From a virus: a stretch of DNA of 61,034 bases. Every line of letters begins with the position of its first letter. The first letter of the stretch is position 1. The stretch lies in the IMG/VR virus record IMGVR_UViG_3300035540_000034, positions 1-61,034 of that record; one strand, 5' to 3'. Shown piece after piece: positions 7,620-31,211 of this stretch. The translations under genes and the position numbers were made by a program. The notes under the pieces are model-generated. The model had not been told where the DNA came from, did not search any database, and saw nothing but the letters and a program-made list of their open reading frames with translations.

Positions 7620-8069
7620 ATGGCAGATACTGAAATTCAAATTGTAGAAGGTGTGAATTTAGAAGATCTTAACAGAAAGAACTTCTCATTGAAGAATGAA
7701 TACATGTCAAACTTATTGTCAACAGCATTCTTGGTTTTACCTAATGTTTACTCTGCGGTTAAAAGAGAACTGCAAGTTACTAAAGGTTTTATATCCGGTG
7801 CTTCAGTAAGAGATTATCCTGAAAGTTACAGACACATAATGAGTAGATACACTAAAGGTCTATCTCTCGAAGTAACTTGGAGTCCTTGGTTAAACGATGA
7901 AGCTGTACAGGCAGCCTACAACATCTTTAACCAGATTAAAGGCAATCCTGAAGAGAATGTTATGATCGTGATCAATAAGGATAAAGGTAGGTTAGCTTGT
8001 CATCGTGATGGAAAGAAAACACAAATAGTTGAAATAAGTGGTAAACAAAAACGAGTGTTAAAAGAATGA
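7620..8069 (+). CDS. Hypothetical protein (149 aa), last gene of the plus-strand block
   Basis: ATG 7620 is preferred over the TTG 7611 of the ORF track. Followed by the bidirectional terminator. Confidence 0.6.
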   Translation: MADTEIQIVEGVNLEDLNRKNFSLKNEYMSNLLSTAFLVLPNVYSAVKRELQVTKGFISGASVRDYPESYRHIMSRYTKGLSLEVTWSPWLNDEAVQAAYNIFNQIKGNPEENVMIVINKDKGRLACHRDGKKTQIVEISGKQKRVLKE

Positions 8070-8070
8070 T

Positions 8071-8104
8071 AAAAAGAAGGGAGGCATTTCGCCTCCCTCT
8101 TTTC
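8071..8104. terminator. Bidirectional rho-independent terminator at the convergence of the two gene blocks
   Basis: GGGAGGC (8079-8085), loop ATTTC, GCCTCCC (8091-8097). An A-run lies upstream and a T-run downstream. Confidence 0.8.
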
Positions 8105-8105
8105 A

Positions 8106-8660
8106 TCATGCAGCACTGAGTAGCTGTTTTAGTTTGTCGATAACTTTAGAGGCTTCCTTATACTTTTCCACCTCTTTTTTCAAATCTTCCACTTCCTTTT
8201 CGAGCTTGCGAACAGAATTCTTAACAGCGAATTCTTCCCAGCCCTGTTCAACTTTTGTGTTTTTAGGATTAGATTTTTTCTGCTTGTTAGAAACTGTTTT
8301 GATCTTCTGAATCCTTGTTAAGGCCTTAGATTCAGACTCTCTAAACTGTTCTATAATATCGTTAATCTCAGAGATTGTCAAAGATTTTGGTATATGAAAC
8401 CTAATTCTAAATAACAAATCTTCAAGAGCTTCTGCTCCTACCACGATCATCCTTTTAGGATTACCAACTGGGTGTCGTCCTGCATTCCTGATAAAGATTG
8501 TTTTAATCCCAGGTATTTTGTAAGCAAAGGTCAGTGTGCTTTTAGTTTTTGCTTCTTCTGTCCCTATAGCTTTCAGGATATCTTTAATAACCAAAGCTCC
8601 CTGTTGATTGTTAAACAAGATAGGCTGAATAGCTTTGTTCTTAATTCGTACACTTAACAT
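8106..8660 (-). CDS. Hypothetical protein with C-terminal coiled coil (184 aa)
   Basis: AGGAGG upstream of the ATG. Last gene of the minus-strand block. Confidence 0.6.
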   Translation of the reverse strand: MLSVRIKNKAIQPILFNNQQGALVIKDILKAIGTEEAKTKSTLTFAYKIPGIKTIFIRNAGRHPVGNPKRMIVVGAEALEDLLFRIRFHIPKSLTISEINDIIEQFRESESKALTRIQKIKTVSNKQKKSNPKNTKVEQGWEEFAVKNSVRKLEKEVEDLKKEVEKYKEASKVIDKLKQLLSAA

Positions 8661-8668
8661 TGTGCCTC

Positions 8669-9154
8669 CTATAATACTTCTTCTTCTTTTACAAATACTG
8701 TGTCTGCGCAGTAATTGTATTTACGAAGAAGATTTTTAATTTCCAAGCTTAATTGTTTACGCCCTTCTATATCTATGGCAGTAGGACTCTTTACATTTAC
8801 CTGTATATTGTAAACGCCTTCATACTTAGCACCTAATTTACGGTAGAGGTAAGCTGCTATAAGTTCTGCATCTTCTTGTAAGACACCGGATAATATAACA
8901 TTACCAAACTTGATATAGAAAAGACCTTCAGACTCTTCTAGTTTAAGTTTATCTTTTAGTATCTTAAGTGCTTTTCTATAGTTCTGTTTTTGTGTGAAGA
9001 AGTGAGAAAGCGTTCTTGTTAATCTTTGATGGTAATTTGTTTGCCCATGTCTTCTGAACAAATTCGGATCTTTGATCCAAATAGGAGCTATTGCTGGGTT
9101 GTTACCATACTTCTTGATAAACTTTTTCACCTTTAAATCGAAACTATTATTCAT
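8669..9154 (-). CDS. Hypothetical protein (161 aa)
   Basis: Long ORF in operon register; no motif recognised. Confidence 0.6.
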   Translation of the reverse strand: MNNSFDLKVKKFIKKYGNNPAIAPIWIKDPNLFRRHGQTNYHQRLTRTLSHFFTQKQNYRKALKILKDKLKLEESEGLFYIKFGNVILSGVLQEDAELIAAYLYRKLGAKYEGVYNIQVNVKSPTAIDIEGRKQLSLEIKNLLRKYNYCADTVFVKEEEVL

Positions 9155-13916: not shown

Positions 13917-15437
13917 TCAGAAAATTATCTTGTACAAGACAGATATGGTATGAAGCTCTCTGAAAATTTCATAAGCATAGTTAGACTTTTGTTTATGTAG
14001 GCGTGCCATTGAATACGAAATCGGACTTATATTGTCCTTAAACGTGAATATCAAAGGGCTGAGGCTAGTTAGAACGGTCTTATTTTCCAGTATTTTTAAA
14101 CCTTCTGGAAATAAGAACTCCTGAATAGCTAACTTGCCATCAACACTAGCCTCTTGCCAAGACAAAAATAAGTTAGACAGGAACTGTTCTGCAAAAGTTA
14201 AGATTGGGTTAATATCCAATATTTTATTAGACATCTTAGTTAGTTGAGCTTGCAATTCCAACTTCTCCTTACTTATCTTATTGATCTTTTGCTTGTACTT
14301 TTCCTTAGAAAAGGTTCCGTCAATTAGCAGTTCGTCTAATCTTTCTTCTTGACCTTGGAGTTTTGAGAGTCTAGCTCTAATTCTTGTGGTATCTTTTTTA
14401 GAGTCTTGAGAATATTCCTCAGCCAATGAGGCAAGTTCCTCTTTCAGCTGTTGCCACTGAGCTTTATTGAAAGAAAGCTCATCATCAAGCATCTCTTTTA
14501 ATTGTTTCACAATCTTCTTTTCACCAATGTTTACACATGACTCATGGCACTTGTAATAGGTATGACCTTTTACTTTGTAGCCAGACATTACATGTTCATT
14601 GTTACATTTTAAAAATGAGTTGAAAAGAAATTTGCGAGATCTGTGAGCAACCTGAGGCTTAGTAACACGTACTCCATTAACTCTAAACCAAGTACTCTTA
14701 CAGATGATAGGTTTAAAGTTTCCCAGTAATAGTTCAGGGAAGAGTCTAGTTCTCATTAGTCCACAATATATAGGATTCTGTACTATCTTGTGTACATGTG
14801 AACGTGTAAACTTACCATGACCAAGTGTTTTTAACACTCTAATTATCTCTTGAGCCGACTCATGTCGCTCAAACATTTCAAAGATTGTTTTGACAGCCTG
14901 AGCTTCTTCCCATACGGGTTCAAGTTTTCTATGACCATTTACTTTCTTGCCATATCGATAGCCATAAGGGGGTGAGAACACCCAATAACCTTTGCTCAGA
15001 GCTTTCTTCATACCAGCTACAGCTCTCTCTCTGATCTTATCAGATTCATACTCAGACATAGCAAAGTTAATATTTCTCTGAAATCTGCCATCTGGTGACT
15101 CTGCATCATAGCTTTCTGTAGCTGAGTGCAGCTTAGCTCCCAATCGTTTTAGCTGAGCCGAAACGTTGAGAGAGTCTTGTAGGTTACGTGAGAAACGATC
15201 ATACTTCCAGACAATAATAGCTTCAATGTTATTGTTGCCTTTTACATAATTTATCATCTTCTTAAAAGAGGTTCTCTTCTCGATACTACGACCAGAGATT
15301 CCCTCTTCTACGAATGTCTTTGCTATATTGATCTTATGACGCTTTGCATATTCTTCACAAACGTCTTGTTGAAATTCAAGGCTATAACCTTGGGTTTGAT
15401 CTTGAGTGGATACTCTAATATAGATTACTCCAAACAT
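13917..15437 (-). CDS. int: Large serine recombinase (integrase)
   Basis: N-terminus VIYIRVSTQDQ (catalytic Ser motif), resolvase-type domain, long C-terminal recombinase / Cys-rich / coiled-coil extension. AGGAGG RBS. Confidence 0.9.
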   Translation of the reverse strand: MFGVIYIRVSTQDQTQGYSLEFQQDVCEEYAKRHKINIAKTFVEEGISGRSIEKRTSFKKMINYVKGNNNIEAIIVWKYDRFSRNLQDSLNVSAQLKRLGAKLHSATESYDAESPDGRFQRNINFAMSEYESDKIRERAVAGMKKALSKGYWVFSPPYGYRYGKKVNGHRKLEPVWEEAQAVKTIFEMFERHESAQEIIRVLKTLGHGKFTRSHVHKIVQNPIYCGLMRTRLFPELLLGNFKPIICKSTWFRVNGVRVTKPQVAHRSRKFLFNSFLKCNNEHVMSGYKVKGHTYYKCHESCVNIGEKKIVKQLKEMLDDELSFNKAQWQQLKEELASLAEEYSQDSKKDTTRIRARLSKLQGQEERLDELLIDGTFSKEKYKQKINKISKEKLELQAQLTKMSNKILDINPILTFAEQFLSNLFLSWQEASVDGKLAIQEFLFPEGLKILENKTVLTSLSPLIFTFKDNISPISYSMARLHKQKSNYAYEIFRELHTISVLYKIIF

Positions 15438-15698
15438 TGTGGAGCCTCCTTTTTCTCTAAATACAATTTAAAGATTAACCGAGCTAGCTTCTTTATGTCA
15501 AGTTCCAATTTATCTCCTCCAATAGTAGTAATGACTTAATATTTTGGATCTAATCCGTTTTATCAAACAACAGATTGTGCGTATGATACTAAACATTTTT
15601 TCTTCTTTCTTAATTTTTTCTTGACATATAGTTATCTAACATGGGAACATGTAAATGTTGTTAGCGAATATCTGTCAAGCAGAAAATTACAGGAGAGA

Positions 15699-16073
15699 AT
15701 GATGTTGGATTTTCAGAAAGAATTCAAGGTTCGTAAGAGTGTGGGTGGACGCCTTGCTGCATGGAGAAAGAAAGCTGGCCTTGGCCAGACCGAATTAGCC
15801 GAAAGAATCGGTATCGGTCAAGCTGCCCTTTCTCGTATCGAGAGCGGCAATCTTCCTCTCCATGTTATCCAGTTAAAAGAATTAGCCAGATTAGGGGTAG
15901 ATTTACATTACCTTATTGTCGGTGAGTCTTTTGAAAATAAAGACCACAACAAAGAGGTAACCCGACTAATCAAGCAAATTCATGAGTTGAAAACTAAAAA
16001 TCAAAAGTTGAAAACAACTCTCGAAGCTAAAGATGAGAGATTGTTAGCACTTATTGATAAGTTAACTGGATGA
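15699..16073 (+). CDS. XRE-family helix-turn-helix transcriptional regulator (CI-like repressor candidate) with C-terminal coiled coil
   Basis: GQTELAERIGIGQAALSRIESGN HTH. Divergent from the integrase. ATG 15699/15702 after AGGAGAG is preferred to the TTG 15621 of the ORF track. Confidence 0.8.
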   Translation: MMLDFQKEFKVRKSVGGRLAAWRKKAGLGQTELAERIGIGQAALSRIESGNLPLHVIQLKELARLGVDLHYLIVGESFENKDHNKEVTRLIKQIHELKTKNQKLKTTLEAKDERLLALIDKLTG

Positions 16074-16250
16074 ATAGGCTGAACGTATAAACATAGATAT
16101 ACATAAGCCTATGAAAAACGACAGTACAGACGCGTAAATAACAGACAAGATACAAACTAGGATCAGCAGGACAAGGGCTGTCTTGCCTGCTGATTCTGTT
16201 ATATCTATGAGAGCTCCTACAATTAATCCGATTAGAAATGGGAATATCAT
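16062..16250 (-). CDS. Small two-TM membrane protein (62 aa), translationally coupled to the vWA gene
   Basis: ATGA overlaps the vWA stop. GGAGG lies 5 nt upstream. Two hydrophobic helices. Confidence 0.5.
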   Translation of the reverse strand: MIFPFLIGLIVGALIDITESAGKTALVLLILVCILSVIYASVLSFFIGLCISMFIRSAYSSS

Positions 16251-17557
16251 TCTTCCCTCCAATCTTCCATATAGACCACTTCACCAAAAGGTGGATTGAA
16301 CATGTTCCGGGCATAACCATCGATAACCCATAGGACAGGTATATCTGGTTCTTCTTCCGGGAAGCTATAGCACATACCATCAGTAAATACTATTATAGCT
16401 TTATGGTCAAAGCCTCCTTCGTTATCCATGAAGTGTTCTAGTGGAGGAACAAAGTCTGTACCACCACCACCTTTGGGGTTGATGTCATCATTCATTCCAT
16501 TGATGATGTCTGGCCCATAAACTTTAGTATCGAAATACACAACTTCTAATTGTGTACCCTTAAAGTTAAAGGCTATACTCTTTACTTCTGAGATATACTG
16601 TTTTACTTCCTCGAATTGTACACTGCCACTGGTATCACAGGCTATACCTATAGTACCTAATTTAGGTGCTTCTAAGGAAGGCAAATATAAATCAGTGTAA
16701 AGGTACCGTTTGTTAGGTGACTTCCATCTGTAGTCGTTTTTACTATTCTCAGTAATGAAACGAGCGAGGATCTCTTTCCAAGAAAGTTTTTCCTCATTTA
16801 TACTGTCCAGCTGGCGTTTCATACCAGCAGGTATAGTCCCTCTACTTTTAGCTGCTGCAACAGCCTTGTTTATCTGCACCTTACAATTTTCTTCCTGCTC
16901 TTTGGCAGTTAGAGAGTAGTCGCCACTGTTAGGTGCTGACCCTTGGTCTTCATTACCTTGTTCTTTATCTGTATTTGCTGCTGACTTTGTTGCAGCTTCC
17001 TGTTCTTCTTTGCTTTTACCATCTTCTGATGAACTCGATGATGTATTTTCATCTTCATCCGAGTCATCATCTGTATCTTTTGAAGAGTTAGCTTCACCTG
17101 AAGAACCAGGCTGGTAATCTTCTACATCGCCTATAGAAGTAAATTGAGGAACACTTTCTGGTTCTCCATACTTGTCTATAAGCTTTTCGTAGATCTCTTC
17201 AGCTGACATGTTCTCGAAATCATTGCTTTGTAGTCCTCCTTCTGGAATGGTTAACCCGTTGGATGCAATTATGGGATTAACAGCATAATCACAAGCCATG
17301 TTCCAGACTCTATGGTTACGATTGTTTCGCCTGAAAGGATGTAGCATTGCTACATGGAGAACTTCGTGAGCGATAAGACCAATAGTTTCCTCCTGACTTA
17401 TACTATCGATAAAATCAGGATTAAACTTAAGTACTACAGAATCAGTAGCTGCTGTAGGTATGGTCGTATCCTCAACTCTTTTCAGATGTAATGCTAGACT
17501 AGCAAAGAAGGGTTGATTTAAAAGCAACTTAGTCATTGCTATTTGTATCTTTTTCAT
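16247..17557 (-). CDS. vWA-domain protein with N-terminal HExxH metallopeptidase-like domain (DUF2201-type), CobT-like
   Basis: HEVLH at codons 64-68 (17354-17368). MIDAS motif DTSGS. Acidic low-complexity linker. AGGAGG RBS. Confidence 0.8.
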   Translation of the reverse strand: MKKIQIAMTKLLLNQPFFASLALHLKRVEDTTIPTAATDSVVLKFNPDFIDSISQEETIGLIAHEVLHVAMLHPFRRNNRNHRVWNMACDYAVNPIIASNGLTIPEGGLQSNDFENMSAEEIYEKLIDKYGEPESVPQFTSIGDVEDYQPGSSGEANSSKDTDDDSDEDENTSSSSSEDGKSKEEQEAATKSAANTDKEQGNEDQGSAPNSGDYSLTAKEQEENCKVQINKAVAAAKSRGTIPAGMKRQLDSINEEKLSWKEILARFITENSKNDYRWKSPNKRYLYTDLYLPSLEAPKLGTIGIACDTSGSVQFEEVKQYISEVKSIAFNFKGTQLEVVYFDTKVYGPDIINGMNDDINPKGGGGTDFVPPLEHFMDNEGGFDHKAIIVFTDGMCYSFPEEEPDIPVLWVIDGYARNMFNPPFGEVVYMEDWREE

Positions 17558-18428
17558 TAGAGTCCTCCTCTTGATTCTTAGGCATGTAAGATTTCATTTT
17601 CTCATATATTTCATCAGCCTTATTAACCATATCTTTACGGAGTCTCTTGTTTGTCCTGAGGTCATCAGGGTCTTTGACTAACTCATTAGAAGCTTCTTCT
17701 GCTAATTTATCTAGCATTGTATCTTCCAGGAAATTTAGCCTAGGAACTATCTCGCAAACATCCTTAAGGTTTGTTACCAATGTGTTCTTGAATTTACCAT
17801 CAGGATCTTTAAGTTTGTCCCTGTATTTCTGGACTACTTCTAGAGTTCTTGACCATAAGTTTTTGTTAGCCTTATATATTTTTTTGTAGGTTTGCTGACG
17901 AATAGTCTTTTTGATCTTCTTGACCTCAGTATCTTTTAGGCTAACCCTAAAATCATTAGGGTCAGTAATCTGTTCAATATGATTGCTAACATCAAAAAGT
18001 TCTTTTAACATAACCTCATCAGGATAGTCGTCTTCATCATATAGGCTACCTAATGTTAGTTGAGCTTCTTGTTTGTAGACTTTGAAATGCTTACAGAAAC
18101 CATCTACTTCTTGGTGGAATTCTGACATTAGCTTGTTCATTGTTCCTACGTACTCCCAATAGTTAGTGGAAGGTAACATTCTGTATCCTTGGTCGTCCCA
18201 AGGCAGAGTGTTTTCGTAGTGGAATTGTCTTGCTGTTCTAGCTATCTTCTTGATAGCTTTCAAATGTTCCTTACTAACCAGATGTTTATGATAAACACCT
18301 GCATCTTTAGCAGCATTATGTAGTTTATTTACCTCTTCAGCAGCTGGTCGATCTACTTTGAGTCCACTCCAAGTGGATATCTTTAATCGTACCAGCATTG
18401 CCTTGTAGGTGAGTGTCGAATTTTTCAT
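17529..18428 (-). CDS. DUF3150-like protein (299 aa)
   Basis: N-terminal LVRLKISTWSGLKVD resembles the DUF3150 family that accompanies CobS/CobT-like pairs on mobile elements. Recognised by eye only. Confidence 0.45.
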   Translation of the reverse strand: MKNSTLTYKAMLVRLKISTWSGLKVDRPAAEEVNKLHNAAKDAGVYHKHLVSKEHLKAIKKIARTARQFHYENTLPWDDQGYRMLPSTNYWEYVGTMNKLMSEFHQEVDGFCKHFKVYKQEAQLTLGSLYDEDDYPDEVMLKELFDVSNHIEQITDPNDFRVSLKDTEVKKIKKTIRQQTYKKIYKANKNLWSRTLEVVQKYRDKLKDPDGKFKNTLVTNLKDVCEIVPRLNFLEDTMLDKLAEEASNELVKDPDDLRTNKRLRKDMVNKADEIYEKMKSYMPKNQEEDSNEKDTNSND

Positions 18429-18429
18429 T

Positions 18430-18909
18430 TTAGGCTCCTTGTTTTAAGATTTTTCTTATTACTTCAGGCAGAGAGTAACGGGTATCGTTTATATGGTCAT
18501 CCTTAATGTAACTATCTTTAAGCATAACCTTAAGAACATCTACGGATATATCCTCGAAGTTCTTTTCAGCAAACTCATATAAGCTCAAGGTTCCTTCGTC
18601 GCCATAAAGTAGACAACTTCTAACTATCTGAATATCTGACAAATATTTATCGCTGTCGTCAGCGTAGTCGCCTGCTACTACGATTCTGTCTCCAGCCCAG
18701 CTACCAACTAGGTGTGCTAAAGGATCATTGTCGTCGATACACAAATCTCCACCTCCCAAGCCATTGCCGCTAGATAAAAGAATTGCTAGTCCACAAAGAG
18801 ATCCTTGTCTGCTGCTAGCAAATTCCATGAGTTTTGTTCCTTCTCCAAACTTATAAGGGTCAATGTATTGTTGCTTATCAAGATTGACTATCTTGTAGTA
18901 TTGTCCCAT
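18430..18909 (-). CDS. Hypothetical protein (159 aa)
   Basis: AAGGAG RBS. No domain recognised. Confidence 0.6.
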   Translation of the reverse strand: MGQYYKIVNLDKQQYIDPYKFGEGTKLMEFASSRQGSLCGLAILLSSGNGLGGGDLCIDDNDPLAHLVGSWAGDRIVVAGDYADDSDKYLSDIQIVRSCLLYGDEGTLSLYEFAEKNFEDISVDVLKVMLKDSYIKDDHINDTRYSLPEVIRKILKQGA

Positions 18910-19282
18910 TTATATCTCCTTTCTCAGAAGGTACTATTGTTAACTGGTAACCTTGTTCTCCAGGCTTCCATTTAGTTGTATAGACTTTACCGTTTCTGAT
19001 GATGTAAGTATAAAGTCTAACATTCCACATATCTTTGATTGTTACAGTTACATACCTTATGTATGGAGCTATAACAAACAACCATATCTTTGCATGGTTA
19101 GATACAGTTATTGTCTTAGAAGTATTACTGTTCTGTTTCATCAGGTTAAATCTATCTAGTTCACTTTCCCACAAACTAGCAATACCTGACTTTTTTTTCA
19201 TCTTGATCTTAGATAATAACCCACCTAGAGCTTTTCTGTCGCTGATATCTAGGTGTTTAATTTCGATTATACAGCAATCCAT
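18878..19282 (-). CDS. Paralog family B, copy 1 (134 aa)
   Basis: IIEIKHLDISDRKALGGLLSKIKMK aligns with copy 2 at roughly 40-45 percent identity over the N-half. Confidence 0.55.
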   Translation of the reverse strand: MDCCIIEIKHLDISDRKALGGLLSKIKMKKKSGIASLWESELDRFNLMKQNSNTSKTITVSNHAKIWLFVIAPYIRYVTVTIKDMWNVRLYTYIIRNGKVYTTKWKPGEQGYQLTIVPSEKGDINGTILQDSQS

Positions 19283-19287
19283 GTTTA

Positions 19288-19668
19288 TTATCCCTTTAAT
19301 TGACTTAAGTCTTCTGGTTTAAGAAAGGAAGATTTGGTTTTATATAGGAAAAAGTCAGCCCTATAGAGCTTTCCTTTATCAATGATAAATCCCCATTTTT
19401 CATAGTCTTCTCCTATAAGAACAACAGTACAGTTGTTAACAAATGGAGATATTGCTGTTAACCAAGACTCGACATGATACCACTTGCACTCATCGGTAGG
19501 GTATGTAAGCCTACCATCTTCTTTCAAAGATAATAGATCAAGTTCGCACATCCAATCAGGTGCTATGTCTGCTGCCACTTTCATTTTAATCTCAGAAAGT
19601 AAGCCGCGTAGACCTTGCTTGTCCTTGATATCCATATCGACTATTCTTAAGTAACTGTAGTATCCCAT
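19288..19668 (-). CDS. Paralog family B, copy 2 (126 aa)
   Basis: YLRIVDMDIKDKQGLRGLLSEIKMK. GAGGAGG RBS. Confidence 0.6.
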   Translation of the reverse strand: MGYYSYLRIVDMDIKDKQGLRGLLSEIKMKVAADIAPDWMCELDLLSLKEDGRLTYPTDECKWYHVESWLTAISPFVNNCTVVLIGEDYEKWGFIIDKGKLYRADFFLYKTKSSFLKPEDLSQLKG

Positions 19669-19669
19669 A

Positions 19670-20431
19670 TTACCTCCTCATTTTATCAGCAACTACCTGT
19701 GTTCGTAGTTTTGATAGAAGTTTTTTTGGTAATGGTTTGCTTATGTTAGCTTTGTATTCTCCTGAGTAAAAGTAAAAAACAGGAAGTTCATTCAAAGAAG
19801 GATCTTCTAACTTTTTCAGTGATAACACTAATTTTAGCAGTGTTTCTGTATCGTAGCACTCATTGTTGACTTCTACTCTTAACCTGCCTGACTTTAGTTT
19901 GAATATCTTCAGCTTCAAACCCATATTATGTGCATAAGGGTTTGATAACTTAGAAGCATTCTTCTTTAAGACAGATATAGGGGTGTTCATATAAGAAGAA
20001 TTATTAGAACAATACTTCACAGCAGAATATAAACTTAAGGTTGCCTTAAACACACAAGGCCAAGGCCTGTCAAAGTAAGCAACTTGATCATCATAGTATG
20101 TTTTCGTCCAGGGGGAGGGTGTTTCTGCTATTTGTTTGATAGCATTGGTAACGGAAATCCTTGTCCATTTTACGTGAGAATAAGAGATTGTGTATTTCTT
20201 ATCCCAGTGTGTGTAAAGTTCACAGGAGTATGCTGCCAAACTTCGTTTTGTCGAGAATATTACTATTCCGTTATCAGGTGTGCAAGCATAGGCAACTAAT
20301 TCTGTATTCTTAAAGAAGTATTTCATAAGAGTTTTCTTATTTTTGTTAACTACTACATGTCTATCTGTATTCTCGTGGTTAATAAGTAGGTTATCTGGGT
20401 CAACTTCACGTAAGAATTGTTGTATATTCAT
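19670..20431 (-). CDS. Paralog family A, copy 1 (253 aa)
   Basis: Shares ELVAY..TP.N.I.IFSTK..LAAYSC, K.KSG.LRVEV.N and the VADK C-terminus with 20442..21191. Confidence 0.65.
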   Translation of the reverse strand: MNIQQFLREVDPDNLLINHENTDRHVVVNKNKKTLMKYFFKNTELVAYACTPDNGIVIFSTKRSLAAYSCELYTHWDKKYTISYSHVKWTRISVTNAIKQIAETPSPWTKTYYDDQVAYFDRPWPCVFKATLSLYSAVKYCSNNSSYMNTPISVLKKNASKLSNPYAHNMGLKLKIFKLKSGRLRVEVNNECYDTETLLKLVLSLKKLEDPSLNELPVFYFYSGEYKANISKPLPKKLLSKLRTQVVADKMRR

Positions 20432-20441
20432 CTTAACCCTC

Positions 20442-21191
20442 TTAAGCTGACTTTTTTATTTTATCAGCTACAGCTTGCGCATAAAGTTTTTTCTCAATAT
20501 CTTTTGAGAAGAACCTTTTAACACTGACAATACAACCACTACTTGACCAACGATATTTAATCTTTGGTAAGTCAGCAATATATGGGTCAGGATTATGCCT
20601 TAGAATATCAAAAGACTTGGCAACGTCTTCTGGGTCAATACGCTTGTTGTCGACTTCTACTCTTAACTTGCCTGACTTTAGCTTATAGATTTTTAAGCTT
20701 TCGGGATAAAGGCGATCAGAAATGTTCCTGTTTCTTTCCGCTCCTATAGCTGTAGAAGAAACAGGTGTTTGTGTAAAAGCAAGTTCATGCGAAATAAAAC
20801 GTATGCTTACTCTTGTCGAAAATATAACAGGCCAAGGTTTATTACTATAAGTAACTTGGTTACTCCAATTACTACCTTTCCACAAAGAAGACCTTTTTAT
20901 GAGTCCCAAAGCTTCTGTTACATCTATGCGATGCCACATGAACTGTTTGTATATATTTTTCAGTCCAAAATGAGCTAATGTGCAGGAGTAAGCTGCTAAT
21001 CCAAGCTTCGTGGAAAAGATAATTATAGCATTACCAGGAGTATACCCATAAGCAACTAATTCTACGTCTGTTTTAAGATACTCTAGAATTATTCTGCTGT
21101 TATTGTATCCTATGGTATGTCTTGCTGAAGACTTAAAGTTAGAGACAGACCTCAATGGGTCTATCCTCTTTAATAGTTCTAGTAAAGTCAT
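20442..21191 (-). CDS. Paralog family A, copy 2 (249 aa)
   Basis: Collinear similarity to 19670..20431 along the whole length. GGGAGG RBS. Confidence 0.65.
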   Translation of the reverse strand: MTLLELLKRIDPLRSVSNFKSSARHTIGYNNSRIILEYLKTDVELVAYGYTPGNAIIIFSTKLGLAAYSCTLAHFGLKNIYKQFMWHRIDVTEALGLIKRSSLWKGSNWSNQVTYSNKPWPVIFSTRVSIRFISHELAFTQTPVSSTAIGAERNRNISDRLYPESLKIYKLKSGKLRVEVDNKRIDPEDVAKSFDILRHNPDPYIADLPKIKYRWSSSGCIVSVKRFFSKDIEKKLYAQAVADKIKKSA

Positions 21192-21202
21192 ACAACCTCC
21201 CT

Positions 21203-22207
21203 TTATGCTAATATAATGTCTTGATTTTCTGTAGCCCAGTCGCTAAAAGCTTCTGTTTCAGCGAGGGATTTCTTCTGTCGACAGAAATCTCTTACTACCA
21301 TTACCTGAAACTCTCGTTGCATTCTTTGTATAAACTTCATGAGTTTATTTATATTCTTCTTGTTAATATTCTTTACAAGAAGCCCACTAAGTGCATAAAG
21401 TGTAGACGCTTTAGTTGGCATTTCGATACCCTCTGGGTCATCGATAATGTCTTTTATGTTAGGGAGTTGGTCGTATGTTTCGGTGAAGGCTATGTATTCA
21501 GCAGCAAAACCTTCTCCGGCAGCTCCAGAGATTGCTTCGTAACGAAGATCTCTTGGTAGCCCATTGTTGATCATGCGACCAACTGCTGCTACACTTCTAG
21601 GACAAGGACTATTAACAATGTCACTTGTTGCCTTGAAGTTGTGAAGCAGGTCAGGTCTAAACCTGATAAAAGCAATCAGCAGAGGTGGTACGTTGTTGTT
21701 GAAAGCCCATTCAATCCAATCATCAGTACTTACCTCTAGCTCTACAATAGAAGCAAATCTACTTTTAACAGGCTCCAATATACCTTGTACGCCTGCTTTA
21801 TCTTTGCGTCTATTGGTAGCTGCCAGAAAGATAACTTTATCAGACACTTTGTGTCCGTTGATTCTTCTGGCTAATATTAGCTGCATAGCTGCTGCTTGTA
21901 CTGCTGCTGGTGCTTGCCCTAAGTCGTCCATAAAGAAGACTGTAGGTTTATCAGCTTTAATCAGCTGTACTAAGTCTCCAAAAGGCAAGAACTCTGCCAT
22001 GTCTTTGTCTTTTGCCGGAAAGGGTAGTCCTTTGTAGTCAGTGGGATCGCTTACTACTGGATGACTAACAACCAGCTTATATCCAAGACTCTGACAAGCT
22101 TGTTGTACTATATCTGTTTTTCCAATGCCGGGTGCTCCCTTAATTAGCACCGGTTCCTTTTCCTGAATCATAAACTTCAGGAAATTTGTTAAATGTTTAG
22201 CTCTCAT
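21203..22207 (-). CDS. MoxR/CobS-like AAA+ ATPase (AAA_5 type)
   Basis: GAPGIGKT (Walker A) and VFFMDDLG (Walker B). Size and layout are typical of MoxR-class ATPases that pair with vWA proteins. Confidence 0.8.
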   Translation of the reverse strand: MRAKHLTNFLKFMIQEKEPVLIKGAPGIGKTDIVQQACQSLGYKLVVSHPVVSDPTDYKGLPFPAKDKDMAEFLPFGDLVQLIKADKPTVFFMDDLGQAPAAVQAAAMQLILARRINGHKVSDKVIFLAATNRRKDKAGVQGILEPVKSRFASIVELEVSTDDWIEWAFNNNVPPLLIAFIRFRPDLLHNFKATSDIVNSPCPRSVAAVGRMINNGLPRDLRYEAISGAAGEGFAAEYIAFTETYDQLPNIKDIIDDPEGIEMPTKASTLYALSGLLVKNINKKNINKLMKFIQRMQREFQVMVVRDFCRQKKSLAETEAFSDWATENQDIILA

Positions 22208-22380
22208 TATGTCCTCCTATTTTTTTTCTTTTTCTTTGTTAACATCTCTTTTATAGCCTCATTGTTGATGAAGCTAATTGTTTCAGAGTCAACTTTACTA
22301 AAATCAAGAGCCAGTAAGTATGTAGCAAAACTCAGTTTCCTGAATGTTTTTACTAGAGTGATGAGGTTTTGCTAGATTGT

Positions 22381-23190
22381 TTAGAAATTTACTAGCTCGC
22401 ATTCTTTCTCCTCTTGATTTTTCATAAACTTGTTTTTGACTAAGGTTGTTGTTATTTTCTTTTTGATAAAATCAGGAACCTCTATCTCAAAGTCTGTAGT
22501 TACGTAACCTCCAAGTTTATCTATACTACAGCGACCTAGCTCGATAAGCTGTTTTACATTACTTAAGGTAATGTTTTGGATGGTTAGACTGAAATTTGAG
22601 GGAAACCTTGTTGGTGTCAGAATTGAAAAGAGACGACCGTCTTGCTTCTCAATGAAATCTATCCTTACTTCTTCATGTCTATTTTTTAGAGCTGCAAAAC
22701 TTAGATTGGCTGTAATTGAGAAGATAGGTGGTTTTAGGCTGTCCCTCTTATAAAAGGTTTTATACGGGCTCTTAAGGTTAAGTTTATATGATTTGCTCTG
22801 TTGCTTTGATTTTATTTTTTCAATCAACCTAACAGCTTCATACACCCTTAGCAGTTGAGTCTCGTACCTTGTAATAGGTTCATAAGTTCTTCCTGTATAT
22901 GTTGCGGGACCCATTATAATAAATCCCATCAAACTATACTGAAAATCTTCTGGAAGAATATCTTTAGTATCGTAACTGTCACAAGCTAATCTACTTGTGA
23001 TGATGATAGCTTCGTGATTATTTAAGTAGGCTACTGCTTGTATGGGTTGGTTATGCTTTTCTAAACACAGCCAAGGTTTAGGATAGTAGTTATGATTAAT
23101 AAAAAGCATTTTATCAAAGACTCTGTCTATATCAACATAAGATGGAGTTATCTTTTCGATAACATCATTAAGTGTGGTAAGTGTGGTCAT
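22381..23190 (-). CDS. Distant paralog of family A, copy 3 (269 aa)
   Basis: AVAYLNNHEAIIITSRLACDSY resembles the ELVAY...IFSTK..LAAYSC core. Similar length. AGGAGG RBS. Confidence 0.5.
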   Translation of the reverse strand: MTTLTTLNDVIEKITPSYVDIDRVFDKMLFINHNYYPKPWLCLEKHNQPIQAVAYLNNHEAIIITSRLACDSYDTKDILPEDFQYSLMGFIIMGPATYTGRTYEPITRYETQLLRVYEAVRLIEKIKSKQQSKSYKLNLKSPYKTFYKRDSLKPPIFSITANLSFAALKNRHEEVRIDFIEKQDGRLFSILTPTRFPSNFSLTIQNITLSNVKQLIELGRCSIDKLGGYVTTDFEIEVPDFIKKKITTTLVKNKFMKNQEEKECELVNF

Positions 23191-25067: not shown

Positions 25068-25364
25068 TTAACAATATGGCGAGTATCTTGTTCCAAATTC
25101 TTTCTTTAACTTAGACAGACAATCATAGCACATATAATCGCCATGTGAGTCTGTTCTATCATAAAGAAAATTAAGAAACTCTTCGCTTTCGTCTAATTCA
25201 CTAAAATCAAACATATGATTTTCATGTTCAACCATATTGTCGTAACATTCTTGACACATTCCTGTGCCACAGTTAACGCAGATAAAATACTCTGCTATAT
25301 TACCATTATCACAGTATTTACATACCTTGTTATTTTTCTTCATATATCTTCCTTGGCTCTTCAA
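25068..25364 (-). CDS. Cys-rich zinc-finger protein (98 aa)
   Basis: CKYC..(13)..CVNCGTGMCQEC ... CYDC gives four CxxC pairs. Confidence 0.6.
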   Translation of the reverse strand: MKSQGRYMKKNNKVCKYCDNGNIAEYFICVNCGTGMCQECYDNMVEHENHMFDFSELDESEEFLNFLYDRTDSHGDYMCYDCLSKLKKEFGTRYSPYC

Positions 25365-25521
25365 CGATTTTTAGTCCTTCTATGCTTCTACATTTTGCTA
25401 ATTCTTCATCATCGACTTCTACTTCTTTAATTAGTACGTTAGACCTGCAATTATCACAGACAAACGGTCTTCCGTTTAGGTATAGTGTGTTACACATTCG
25501 GCATAAATATACTTTTCTCAT
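25330..25521 (-). CDS. Zinc-ribbon protein (63 aa)
   Basis: CRMC..(13)..CDNC. AGGAGG RBS. Confidence 0.55.
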   Translation of the reverse strand: MRKVYLCRMCNTLYLNGRPFVCDNCRSNVLIKEVEVDDEELAKCRSIEGLKIVEEPRKIYEEK

Positions 25522-25551: not shown

Positions 25552-26034
25552 CTAACAGTGAACATCGGCAAAAACAATGTATTTTTTATTACCAAATGAG
25601 ATGTCCATCAGATTTGTCAGACCAGGTTGGTCTAGCTGCCATGAATACAGCTCTGATGACCATAAGTTAAATTCTTCTTGGTGGAATCTTTTTTGCTCAG
25701 TTTTGAATTTACAATACTCAACTAACTGATCCCATTGGTAAACATTCAAACTGTCTTCATTCATTTTGAAAGCAGTTATGGTTGTGACTAAGTCTTGGTT
25801 AAGATAGAGATGATTTGCAGCCTCTAATATAAACTTTTTAACACGTGCAAGATTCCAGGTCTGAAAAAAGTGTCGAGGCTTACCTTCAAACAAAACTTCG
25901 TCATCTTCACTGATGGCTCCCATAACTGTTTTCCAGTTATTGAAACTTCCCCACTCTTCTGTGGTTTGTTCTACAAACTTCATAGCCTCTTTATGCGAAG
26001 AGGCTTTAACTGAGAATAGATGGGTAACATGCAT
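25552..26034 (-). CDS. Hypothetical protein (160 aa)
   Basis: AGGAGG RBS. No motif recognised. Confidence 0.6.
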   Translation of the reverse strand: MHVTHLFSVKASSHKEAMKFVEQTTEEWGSFNNWKTVMGAISEDDEVLFEGKPRHFFQTWNLARVKKFILEAANHLYLNQDLVTTITAFKMNEDSLNVYQWDQLVEYCKFKTEQKRFHQEEFNLWSSELYSWQLDQPGLTNLMDISFGNKKYIVFADVHC

Positions 26035-30356: not shown

Positions 30357-30656
30357 TTAGGCTACCGCCTTTACTGTATCTTTCTTTTTGTAAGTTATTG
30401 CTATGTCCATGTTTAATATTCTGGACTTACCTGCTATCTCACGTCTCTTCCTTGTATTCATCGTATCAGTGTTAAGTTCTTCCAGAAACCTAAGATAGTT
30501 GTCGTAAGAAAGGATTATCCAACTAGGTCTGAAGCCAGTTCTAGTCATAAACTCTGTTCTTACTTCTTGTATCCTGTCTGAGACGGTTTCTTTGACAGTT
30601 TGGGAATTGTCGTCTTGGGTAAATAAGTCTGGTTCTGCATTAAAAGTTTTTCCCAT
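30357..30656 (-). CDS. Hypothetical protein (99 aa)
   Basis: The stop of this ORF abuts the next start. Confidence 0.55.
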   Translation of the reverse strand: MGKTFNAEPDLFTQDDNSQTVKETVSDRIQEVRTEFMTRTGFRPSWIILSYDNYLRFLEELNTDTMNTRKRREIAGKSRILNMDIAITYKKKDTVKAVA

Positions 30657-31110
30657 GTAATCTATCCCTCTGCTTGTTAAAGCGATATTTTAGCTTGATA
30701 TGTCTATCCAGGTCAAAGCTATGTTTAGTTTGTAGCCTTCCTACTAGGTCGGCTAGCCTGATGAATGTATCAGCTATTTCTTCGGGAAAGCTGCCTTTGA
30801 TCTTCTCTTGGTAGGCCTTAAAAAACTTTTTATCATTCTGGATCTTCTCAACCTGACTCAAAGTATCAGCAGTGGGGAAGATATTTTCAGGTTTATCAGC
30901 ACAACGAAATGTCTCAAAAGCCTCAGCTAGCTCTGTAACTATCAACATAAGGCTGGTACCCAGCTCCTTTGGGTTATCCCAAAACCCTTTTTCTTTTGCC
31001 AGTTCGTGTGATTGTTTTACTAGTTTTGGAATAGTCAAGGAAGGCTTAAACACGTTAATGGTGTTGGATCGTCCTTCATAGCCTACTCTAAGTTTGTCTC
31101 GATGCTCCAT
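30640..31110 (-). CDS. mazG: MazG-like nucleoside triphosphate pyrophosphohydrolase (156 aa)
   Basis: LIVTELAEAFE and EEIADTFIRLADL motifs. ATG 31110 lies 6 nt after AAGGAG. The ORF-track N-terminal 29 aa are the tRNA read in frame. Confidence 0.7.
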   Translation of the reverse strand: MEHRDKLRVGYEGRSNTINVFKPSLTIPKLVKQSHELAKEKGFWDNPKELGTSLMLIVTELAEAFETFRCADKPENIFPTADTLSQVEKIQNDKKFFKAYQEKIKGSFPEEIADTFIRLADLVGRLQTKHSFDLDRHIKLKYRFNKQRDRLHGKNF

Positions 31111-31136
31111 TTGATCTCCTTTGTTTAGCTTAAATT

Positions 31137-31211
31137 TGGTAGCGGGGGTAGGATTCGAACCTACAACCTCAAGGTTATGGGCCTTGCGAGCTGCCATTGC
31201 TCTACCCCGCT
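31137..31211 (-). tRNA. tRNA with anticodon CAT (Met, or Ile2 if lysidinylated); CCA encoded
   Basis: Hand-folded cloverleaf. Acceptor AGCGGGG/CCCCGCT, D stem GAGC/GCTC, anticodon stem CAAGG/CCTTG with loop CCCATAA, T arm GTAGG-TTCGAAT-CCTAC. 75 nt. Confidence 0.85.

Follow-up and report, generated by a model that had tools for sequence, protein, structure and literature searches.

The closest described relatives of the genes considered here are gp24 and gp25 of phage N4 (Schitoviridae), an AAA ATPase and a von Willebrand factor A (vWA, also vWFA) protein whose functions are given as unknown (PMC2784036, PMC10783043). A similar pair, a MoxR AAA+ ATPase and a metallopeptidase–vWA protein, occurs in group 2.2 jumbo phages, where a role in virion assembly was proposed (Iyer et al. 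2021, PMC7824862) by analogy with Acidianus two-tailed virus, whose tail development requires a MoxR–vWA pair. More distantly, RavA–ViaA, CoxD–CoxE, CobS–CobT and Midasin also bring together an AAA+ ATPase of the same broad clade and a vWA protein bearing a metal ion-dependent adhesion site (MIDAS). Here we analyse a locus at about positions 16062–23190, on the minus strand, of IMG/VR virus record IMGVR_UViG_3300035540_000034; the window, as the term is used below, is this whole 61-kb phage contig (61,034 nucleotides). An earlier note had listed ten open reading frames (ORFs) in the locus, and all ten are present on the minus strand. We find here an expanded, lineage-specific form of a three-gene unit that is widespread in mobile elements; in it, two additional gene families, A and B, have each been duplicated in tandem and one B copy has diverged rapidly.

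The canonical unit is a triad of ATPase, DUF3150 and vWA genes, and not a dyad. A DUF3150-like profile had 395 relatives in IMG/VR, from which 80 loci were kept and their neighbours counted within 8 kb. The ATPase gene lies near the DUF3150 relative in 77 of these 80 loci and the vWA gene in 76, usually directly adjacent; all three genes occur together in 74, and in every one of those 74 they are co-directional. The order ATPase–DUF3150–vWA is found in 61 loci, where the two gaps have medians of 46 and 2 nt. In the window the three genes are likewise on the minus strand, within 6 kb, but the ATPase–DUF3150 gap is 2,774 nt, compared with a maximum of 2,423 nt in the 61 canonical loci, and it is filled by five genes: two copies each of families A and B (A1, A2, B1 and B2) and a gene that we call U159. 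None of A, B or U159 was found in the 80 viral loci. The co-localisation of homologs anticipated in the earlier note is therefore borne out, whereas its picture of a dyad separated by six genes holds only in part, since DUF3150 is the regular middle member of the unit and the true insertion is of five genes, between ATPase and DUF3150.

The triad extends well beyond these contigs. All three core families, co-directional and usually contiguous, are present in the cyanophage MinM2 and its relatives Pag-Yong1 and Pra-JY27, in metagenomic contigs such as L004 and L005, and on Burkholderiales plasmids, including a conjugative Simplicispira plasmid; the DUF3150 gene was located on 62 plasmids, mostly from Burkholderiales. 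Hundreds of strictly lytic phages also carry the ATPase and vWA genes (637 and 570 records, respectively). On the Simplicispira suum plasmid (NZ_CP027670, L014, 121755–138606), the ATPase gene and the DUF3150–vWA pair are ~3.6 kb apart, with small genes between them, one of which encodes an addiction toxin; the region also carries an orphan C5 methyltransferase and a DUF4942 protein, and it resembles a leading/establishment region.

Most triads have no insert, but tandem paralogs unrelated to A or B lie inside or beside the triad in MinM2, L173, L196 and L150. In MinM2 (L006, a Synechococcus phage) three tandem paralogs of 112, 111 and 115 aa, 34–51% identical to one another and unrelated in sequence to families A and B, lie between DUF3150 and vWA (7893–8919). 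In L150, an IMG/VR contig of ~104 kb, three tandem ankyrin-repeat paralogs (135–1401; 62–67% identical) are immediately upstream of the triad. A single 538-aa gene lies between the core genes of L005. Duplication near the triad is thus recurrent, but it is not a rule.

The ATPase gene (21203–22207, minus strand) is the first of a tightly packed run of nine genes and has an AGGAGG sequence 6 nt before its ATG. As the earlier note had read from its motifs, the product is an AAA+ ATPase: both GAPGIGKT (Walker A) and VFFMDDLG are present, the AATN and SRF motifs are conserved, and the protein matches Pfam AAA (5.8e-8) and AAA_5 (PF07728; 27.7 bits against a cut-off of 22, full-length domain at residues 19–151) as well as phrog_1297 (5.6e-81). 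We describe it as an N4 gp24-type member of the AAA_5/MoxR-like clade. The label 'MoxR-type' used previously holds only in this broad sense, because the score against AAA_3 (MoxR proper, PF07726) is 16 bits, below the cut-off of 27 (E 0.012). By sequence, the nearest relatives with solved structures are the Midasin AAA modules (1.4e-13). The Walker B motif is FFMDD, ending in DD and not DE. The hhFhDD form is shared by the window, the Cloacimonadota islands described below and the plasmid ATPase; N4-like phages, MinM2 and L005 have hhFhDE. Judging from this pattern, the substitution may represent a clade-specific change in ATP hydrolysis.

The vWA gene (16247–17557, minus strand) encodes a 436-aa protein of the N4 gp25 type, in which a zincin-like metallopeptidase domain precedes a vWA domain with a complete MIDAS. 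The HEVLH and DTSGS motifs pointed out in the earlier note are both there, within matches to DUF2201_N (PF13203; 1.7e-51, 175.9 bits, residues 3–295) and DUF2201 (PF09967; 4.7e-20, 72.4 bits, residues 305–431). In an alignment of ten diverse relatives HEVLH is invariant and is followed by a conserved WNxAxD, and the MIDAS residues (DTSGS, GGGGTDF and FTDG) are retained; peptidase activity and metal binding are predictions from this conservation. A profile search against PDB sequences returned no relative. The protein matches phrog_1314 at 4.4e-101, a family that PHROGs labels 'HNH endonuclease', as do many GenBank phage records for this gene. No HNH domain was detected in the family, whose content is the DUF2201_N peptidase plus vWA, and the label looks like a propagated mis-annotation. 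Residues ~150–215 of the window protein form an acidic, Ser-rich low-complexity linker (…DTDDDSDEDENTSSSSSEDGKSKEEQE…) that is ~55 aa longer than in the island orthologs.

The middle member of the triad (17529–18428, minus strand; 299 aa) is best treated, on family-level similarity, as a divergent DUF3150 protein. Its own score against PF11348 is 18.3 bits, below the Pfam cut-off of 24.9 (E 0.0015, aligned over positions 4–210 of 257), yet 9 of 15 homologs match this family, the best at 2e-8, a cyanophage homolog is annotated as DUF3150 in GenBank, and two precomputed hits agree. The 'DUF3150-like' assignment of the earlier note can accordingly be kept. A profile search found no PDB sequence match for this protein.

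How does the locus compare with the better-known pairs? The window ATPase and vWA protein belong to the same two families as N4 gp24 and gp25 (phrog_1297 and phrog_1314), and N4-like phages give the best tblastn matches (30–35% identity), with the same gene orientation and order just upstream of the replication genes. The N4-like phage XC38 differs in having a small gene between ATPase and vWA, and no DUF3150, A, B or U159 was found in it; the candidate that this small gene is a short DUF3150 was rejected (hhalign 0.2%). N4-like phages are also lytic, whereas the window phage, probably one of Cloacimonadota, is temperate. With the jumbo-phage pair the locus shares an N-terminal HExxH peptidase fused to vWA and a MoxR-like ATPase. 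Compared with the classical MoxR–vWA and chelatase pairs, the vWA protein of the window carries an additional zincin peptidase domain, and there is no CobN-like or metal-cluster target gene. A likeness to CobS/CobT drawn previously comes down to generic AAA+ and vWA similarity: the CobS-type phrog_249 ('porphyrin biosynthesis') matches the ATPase only at the P-loop (residues 9–48), NCBIfam gave no CobS/CobT match, and the window ORF list has no CobN-like gene. The view in the same note that the arrangement contains nothing of assigned function is close to correct, but the pair has been described, both as N4 gp24/gp25 and as the jumbo-phage pair with its proposed assembly role (PMC7824862).

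The origin of the interleaved genes is clarified by a single-copy, six-gene cassette, A–B–ATPase–DUF3150–U159–vWA, that recurs in several Cloacimonadota metagenome-assembled genomes (MAGs) and in one MAG labelled Armatimonadota. The window holds all six families of this cassette, reordered as ATPase–A–A–B–B–U159–DUF3150–vWA. Between the window and the island in L007, identity is 62% for the ATPase, 52% for U159, 42% for vWA, 40% for DUF3150 and 27–30% for family A, making family A the fastest-evolving member. Family A is found right beside the ATPase gene, on its upstream side, in every other lineage examined (L007, L008, L018, L022, L026, L032, L218, L219 and L220/221), and those homologs whose contigs were examined in L007, L218, L219 and L220/221 lie immediately upstream of the ATPase–DUF3150–vWA triad. 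It has also been duplicated in tandem independently in L219 (27% identity, hhalign 99.4%), and a gene upstream of family A in L220 is weakly A-like (hhalign 83%) and may, by its profile similarity, represent a second independent duplication. The earlier suggestion of locally amplified, fast-diverging partners is supported by these observations. We conclude that A, B and U159 are dedicated partners of the triad, and not random cargo, in a lineage that occurs mainly in Cloacimonadota MAGs.

Families A and B are true tandem paralogs, as had been proposed. The two A copies (A1, 20442–21191, 249 aa; A2, 19670–20431, 253 aa; both minus strand) are 34% identical (BLASTP E 2e-45). A1 is the closer of the two to family A elsewhere (30% identical to the L007 copy, E 3e-31), and A2 is slightly more diverged (23–31% to island copies; 27% to L007). 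The family is very rare: a profile run against 1.84 billion representative proteins hit only 16. Neither Pfam, PHROGs nor PDB sequences gave a match, tblastn against phages gave none and a word-indexed search returned the query alone; an AlphaFold2 model from a two-sequence alignment had a pLDDT (predicted local distance difference test) of 39 and was unusable.

The two B copies (B1, 19288–19668, 126 aa; B2, 18878–19282, 134 aa; both minus strand) are 35% identical in a local BLASTP alignment (E 5e-15) and 30% identical over the full multiple alignment. B1 is a conserved ortholog of the island B gene, 39–48% identical to island B proteins and 43–46% to those of the L007 island. B2 is a fast-diverged duplicate that is only 22–30% identical to B proteins other than B1, with 24–31% for the L007 island, and has lost the conserved MGYYS, KWY and GED..WGY motifs. 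A profile search of family B against PDB sequences found no match.

A third, divergent copy of family A had been suggested for the 269-aa gene immediately upstream of the ATPase (22381–23190, minus strand), and this assignment did not hold up: BLASTP against family A gave E values of 0.7–0.9, hhalign gave 0.2–0.3% probability against profiles of 12 and 19 sequences, and the HMM match had E = 3. No homolog was detected in any fetched locus except L002, a contig near-identical to the window. The gene occupies the position that family A holds in other elements, and on position alone it could be a family A derivative diverged beyond recognition, with homology undetectable. The possibility that A, B and U159 are distant paralogs of one another was considered, in part because the N-termini of B and U159 are alike (MGYYS and MGQYY), and was rejected (hhalign ≤0.3% probability).

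U159 (18430–18909, minus strand; 159 aa) is 52% identical to the gene of the same cassette in the L007 island and belongs to a large uncharacterised family of phage and MAG proteins, with at least 1,444 homologs at E ≤ 1e-3 (45–58% identity), none of which has a Pfam domain. The conserved part is an N-terminal domain of ~85 aa with MGQYY, GNGRGGGD (in a loop) and SWAGDRIVVAGDY motifs. Its AlphaFold2 model is confident (pLDDT 89.6, predicted template modelling score 0.86) and had no match among PDB folds (best E 5.6), so that U159 represents a large phage family with a well-predicted fold and no solved relative. In BFVD the model matched only uncharacterised phage homologs, one of them fused to a SWIM zinc finger. 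The tie of U159 to the module is lineage-specific, because most homologs are far from any triad. A further gene (25552–26034, minus strand; 160 aa, no Pfam or PHROG match) is a loosely linked seventh family. It is 37% identical (E 1e-33 to 1e-36) to L018:4306–4794, L022:4009–4494 and a homolog in L008, all three directly upstream of family A; in L026 the homolog is downstream of the cassette, and in viral contig L067 a homolog lies next to a U159 homolog.

The islands bear on two possible functions of the machine. The L007 and L008 cassettes make up the main cargo of ~10-kb islands that have no structural genes, are bounded by tyrosine and serine recombinases and are flanked by host genes of the type IX secretion system type. 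Occurrence in such islands, and on plasmids including a conjugative one, argues against the only published functional proposal, in which the pair would act as a virion-assembly chaperone and maturation protease (PMC7824862). The vWA family is certainly common to jumbo phages, with PA5oct and K64-1 among the tblastn matches, as that proposal would lead one to expect. In the window, however, the module is located in the early/replication arm, on the strand opposite that of the terminase large subunit, portal and tail genes, and we regard an assembly function for this locus as very improbable.

The same islands lend themselves to an explanation in terms of defence or superinfection exclusion by the prophage or island, whereby a MoxR–vWA-type conflict system would sense an invader and trigger a protease effector, with A, B and U159 as sensors or effectors. 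MoxR–vWA ternary conflict systems are documented (PMC7159879), the window has its module next to an integrase and an Xre-type regulator, where accessory genes are typically found, the cassette in L018 is followed by a type I restriction–modification system and a Schlafen-like gene, and fast-evolving, duplicated partners are typical of conflict genes. On the other hand, protection of the host makes little sense for the hundreds of strictly lytic phages that carry the pair. The locus also does not resemble the ternary systems (Kaur et al. 2020) in detail: bpMoxR (PF20030) scores 13.6 bits against a cut-off of 27, Pfam and PADLOC revealed no VMAP-, iSTAND- or propeller-type partner (nSTAND3 matches the P-loop only, below its cut-off), and PADLOC and NCBIfam gave nothing significant on the window proteins. 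Moreover, in L008, L009 and L010 (8518–9626), which are independent assemblies of a single Cloacimonadota island, an identical break divides the vWA gene into two ORFs, and island L026 has a split U159 gene (7929–8489). These disruptions suggest that the cassette is decaying in some integrated copies, which argues against selection by the host. A defensive role is, in our judgement, quite unlikely.

A third possibility is that the machine is an accessory of replication or recombination, acting on DNA-bound proteins at replication or recombination intermediates, either to clear or load components of the replisome or recombinase or to remove roadblocks in the manner of SprT/Spartan. The module is beside replication or recombination genes almost everywhere: DNA polymerase A in 23 viral loci, a helicase and a DNA polymerase in XC38, and in L018 and L218 Rad52 and other recombination/replication genes preceding the cassette, with DUF3987 nearby. 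In the window, the minus-strand arm that runs from ~32 kb down to 8 kb contains small early-type genes, the locus, a large serine recombinase, and an AAA_24 protein, a DnaB-like helicase and an exonuclease. The vWFA gene is also listed in the 14-gene core of N4-like phages (PMC10783043). The earlier note had preferred host takeover or counter-defence to a replication function, which in view of this setting was overstated. A SprT-like match around the HExxH of the vWA protein might be taken in the same direction, but at E 0.004 it is below threshold and covers the generic zincin motif only. Furthermore, scans of the ten proteins with Pfam, PHROG, PADLOC and NCBIfam detected neither a DNA-binding nor a nuclease domain, and the MoxR gene of an rV5-like phage could be knocked out, with a reported defect specific to the DS-28 host discussed below. 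We consider a replication function unlikely, though it is the most credible of these three alternatives.

The explanation that we favour, tentatively and at somewhat less than even probability, is an early-expressed, ATP-driven remodelling and protease machine that aids establishment of the element or counters host defence. The ATPase ring would engage the vWA protein through the MIDAS site, as in other MoxR–vWA pairs (reviewed in PMC7159879, the basis of the analogy). The MIDAS site could capture an acidic ligand on the target, so that the complex would capture and remodel the target, and the HExxH domain would cleave it. DUF3150 may serve as the scaffold of the complex, and family A above all, together here with B and U159, may supply target-specific adaptors or processed substrates. 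The machine would act early after entry or induction of the element, and the pay-off would be establishment through neutralisation of host defence or of DNA-bound host factors.

Three considerations lead us to this preference. First, the unit is common to elements that share only the need to establish themselves in a new cell. Second, the partners evolve fast and duplicate. Third, for rV5-like phages (Vequintavirinae) a preprint (10.1101/2025.11.20.689424) reports that the MoxR ATPase of Bas54, bas54_0063, is needed specifically to overcome the defence system DS-28, giving the counter-defence role put forward in the earlier note one indirect experimental hint. The comparison was made through phage Bas52, whose ATPase homolog is 27% identical to that of the window over 75% of the protein (E 1e-9) and which also has a DUF2201_N + DUF2201 gene; orthology of the Bas52 and Bas54 ATPases is judged from a shared locus-tag number and annotation. 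Bas52 differs from the window in that its ATPase and peptidase–vWA genes are ~4 kb apart on divergent strands and no DUF3150 was seen.

Several observations weigh against an establishment or counter-defence machine of this kind. A single preprint reports the DS-28 phenotype, for the ATPase only and without implicating its vWA partner, and the rV5-like ATPase is a distant relative at ~27% identity. A replication role would explain just as well why the module so constantly neighbours replication genes. With Walker B ending in DD instead of DE, the enzyme may hydrolyse ATP slowly or in an altered way. Finally, U159 homologs occur without the triad in 107 of ~121 loci, where they sit among miscellaneous small early genes with no conserved partners, so that U159 may be an independent early gene merely travelling with the cassette.

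A bolder extension of the establishment reading would make the core a retargetable protease/remodeller, for which family A (and, in this lineage, B and U159) would provide interchangeable specificity adaptors or decoy substrates. We hold this to be improbable, but if true, the rapid divergence and duplication of these partners would allow one machine to be aimed at several host immune or DNA-bound proteins, and the whole would amount to a modular counter-defence protease system of phages, plasmids and islands.

The locus is not a new principle. Its core pair is known, named and uncharacterised; what appears to be new is the regular triad with DUF3150, the six-gene cassette of Cloacimonadota, and the linkage and repeated duplication of family A. 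Searchable literature yielded no description of the triad, the cassette or the family A linkage, with DUF3150 mentioned in one unrelated preprint and DUF2201 incidentally in four papers, and these families are not mentioned in a Nature 2024 paper on leading-region anti-defence or in a preprint on essentiality by transposon mutagenesis (10.64898/2025.12.19.695335). The ATPase and peptidase–vWA pair, spread over N4-like, jumbo and rV5-like phages and plasmids, is nonetheless among the most widespread phage gene pairs without a known function, and its fast-evolving, duplicated partners are the natural place to look for substrates or adaptors from which the machine's target could be learnt.

Several other features surround the module. 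At its 3′ end lies a small, strongly hydrophobic ORF (16062–16262, minus strand) with two transmembrane-like segments, the coupled two-segment mini-protein of the earlier note. Its probable start is an internal ATG at 16250, which is preceded by GGAGG and shares the sequence ATGA with the stop codon of the vWA gene, so that the two would be coupled; with these signals the ORF is a plausible gene. It was found only in the window and in the near-identical L002, and it is outside the conserved module. The Xre-type regulator (15621–16073), the sole plus-strand gene in this part, converges on the 3′ end of the module, and the large serine recombinase (13917–15437, minus strand) sits midway along the leftward arm and separates the module from the replication genes. 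Serine recombinases likewise flank the cassette in L007, L018 and L218.

At the nucleotide level, megablast found no match to the region in GenBank phages; the window sequence recurs in one SRA assembly and one JGI metagenome. A scan for sigma-70 promoters came out below shuffled expectation and was uninformative; promoters of the FCB group differ from the sigma-70 consensus. Elsewhere in the early arm, a tRNA-Met (CAT) gene at 31137–31211 (minus strand) overlaps the annotated 5′ end of a 185-aa ORF (30640–31197), which for that reason probably starts further downstream. Two small Cys-rich ORFs of 98 and 63 aa with CxxC pairs are located at 25068–25521 (minus strand), and one of them has a weak match to a B-box/FYVE-type zinc finger.

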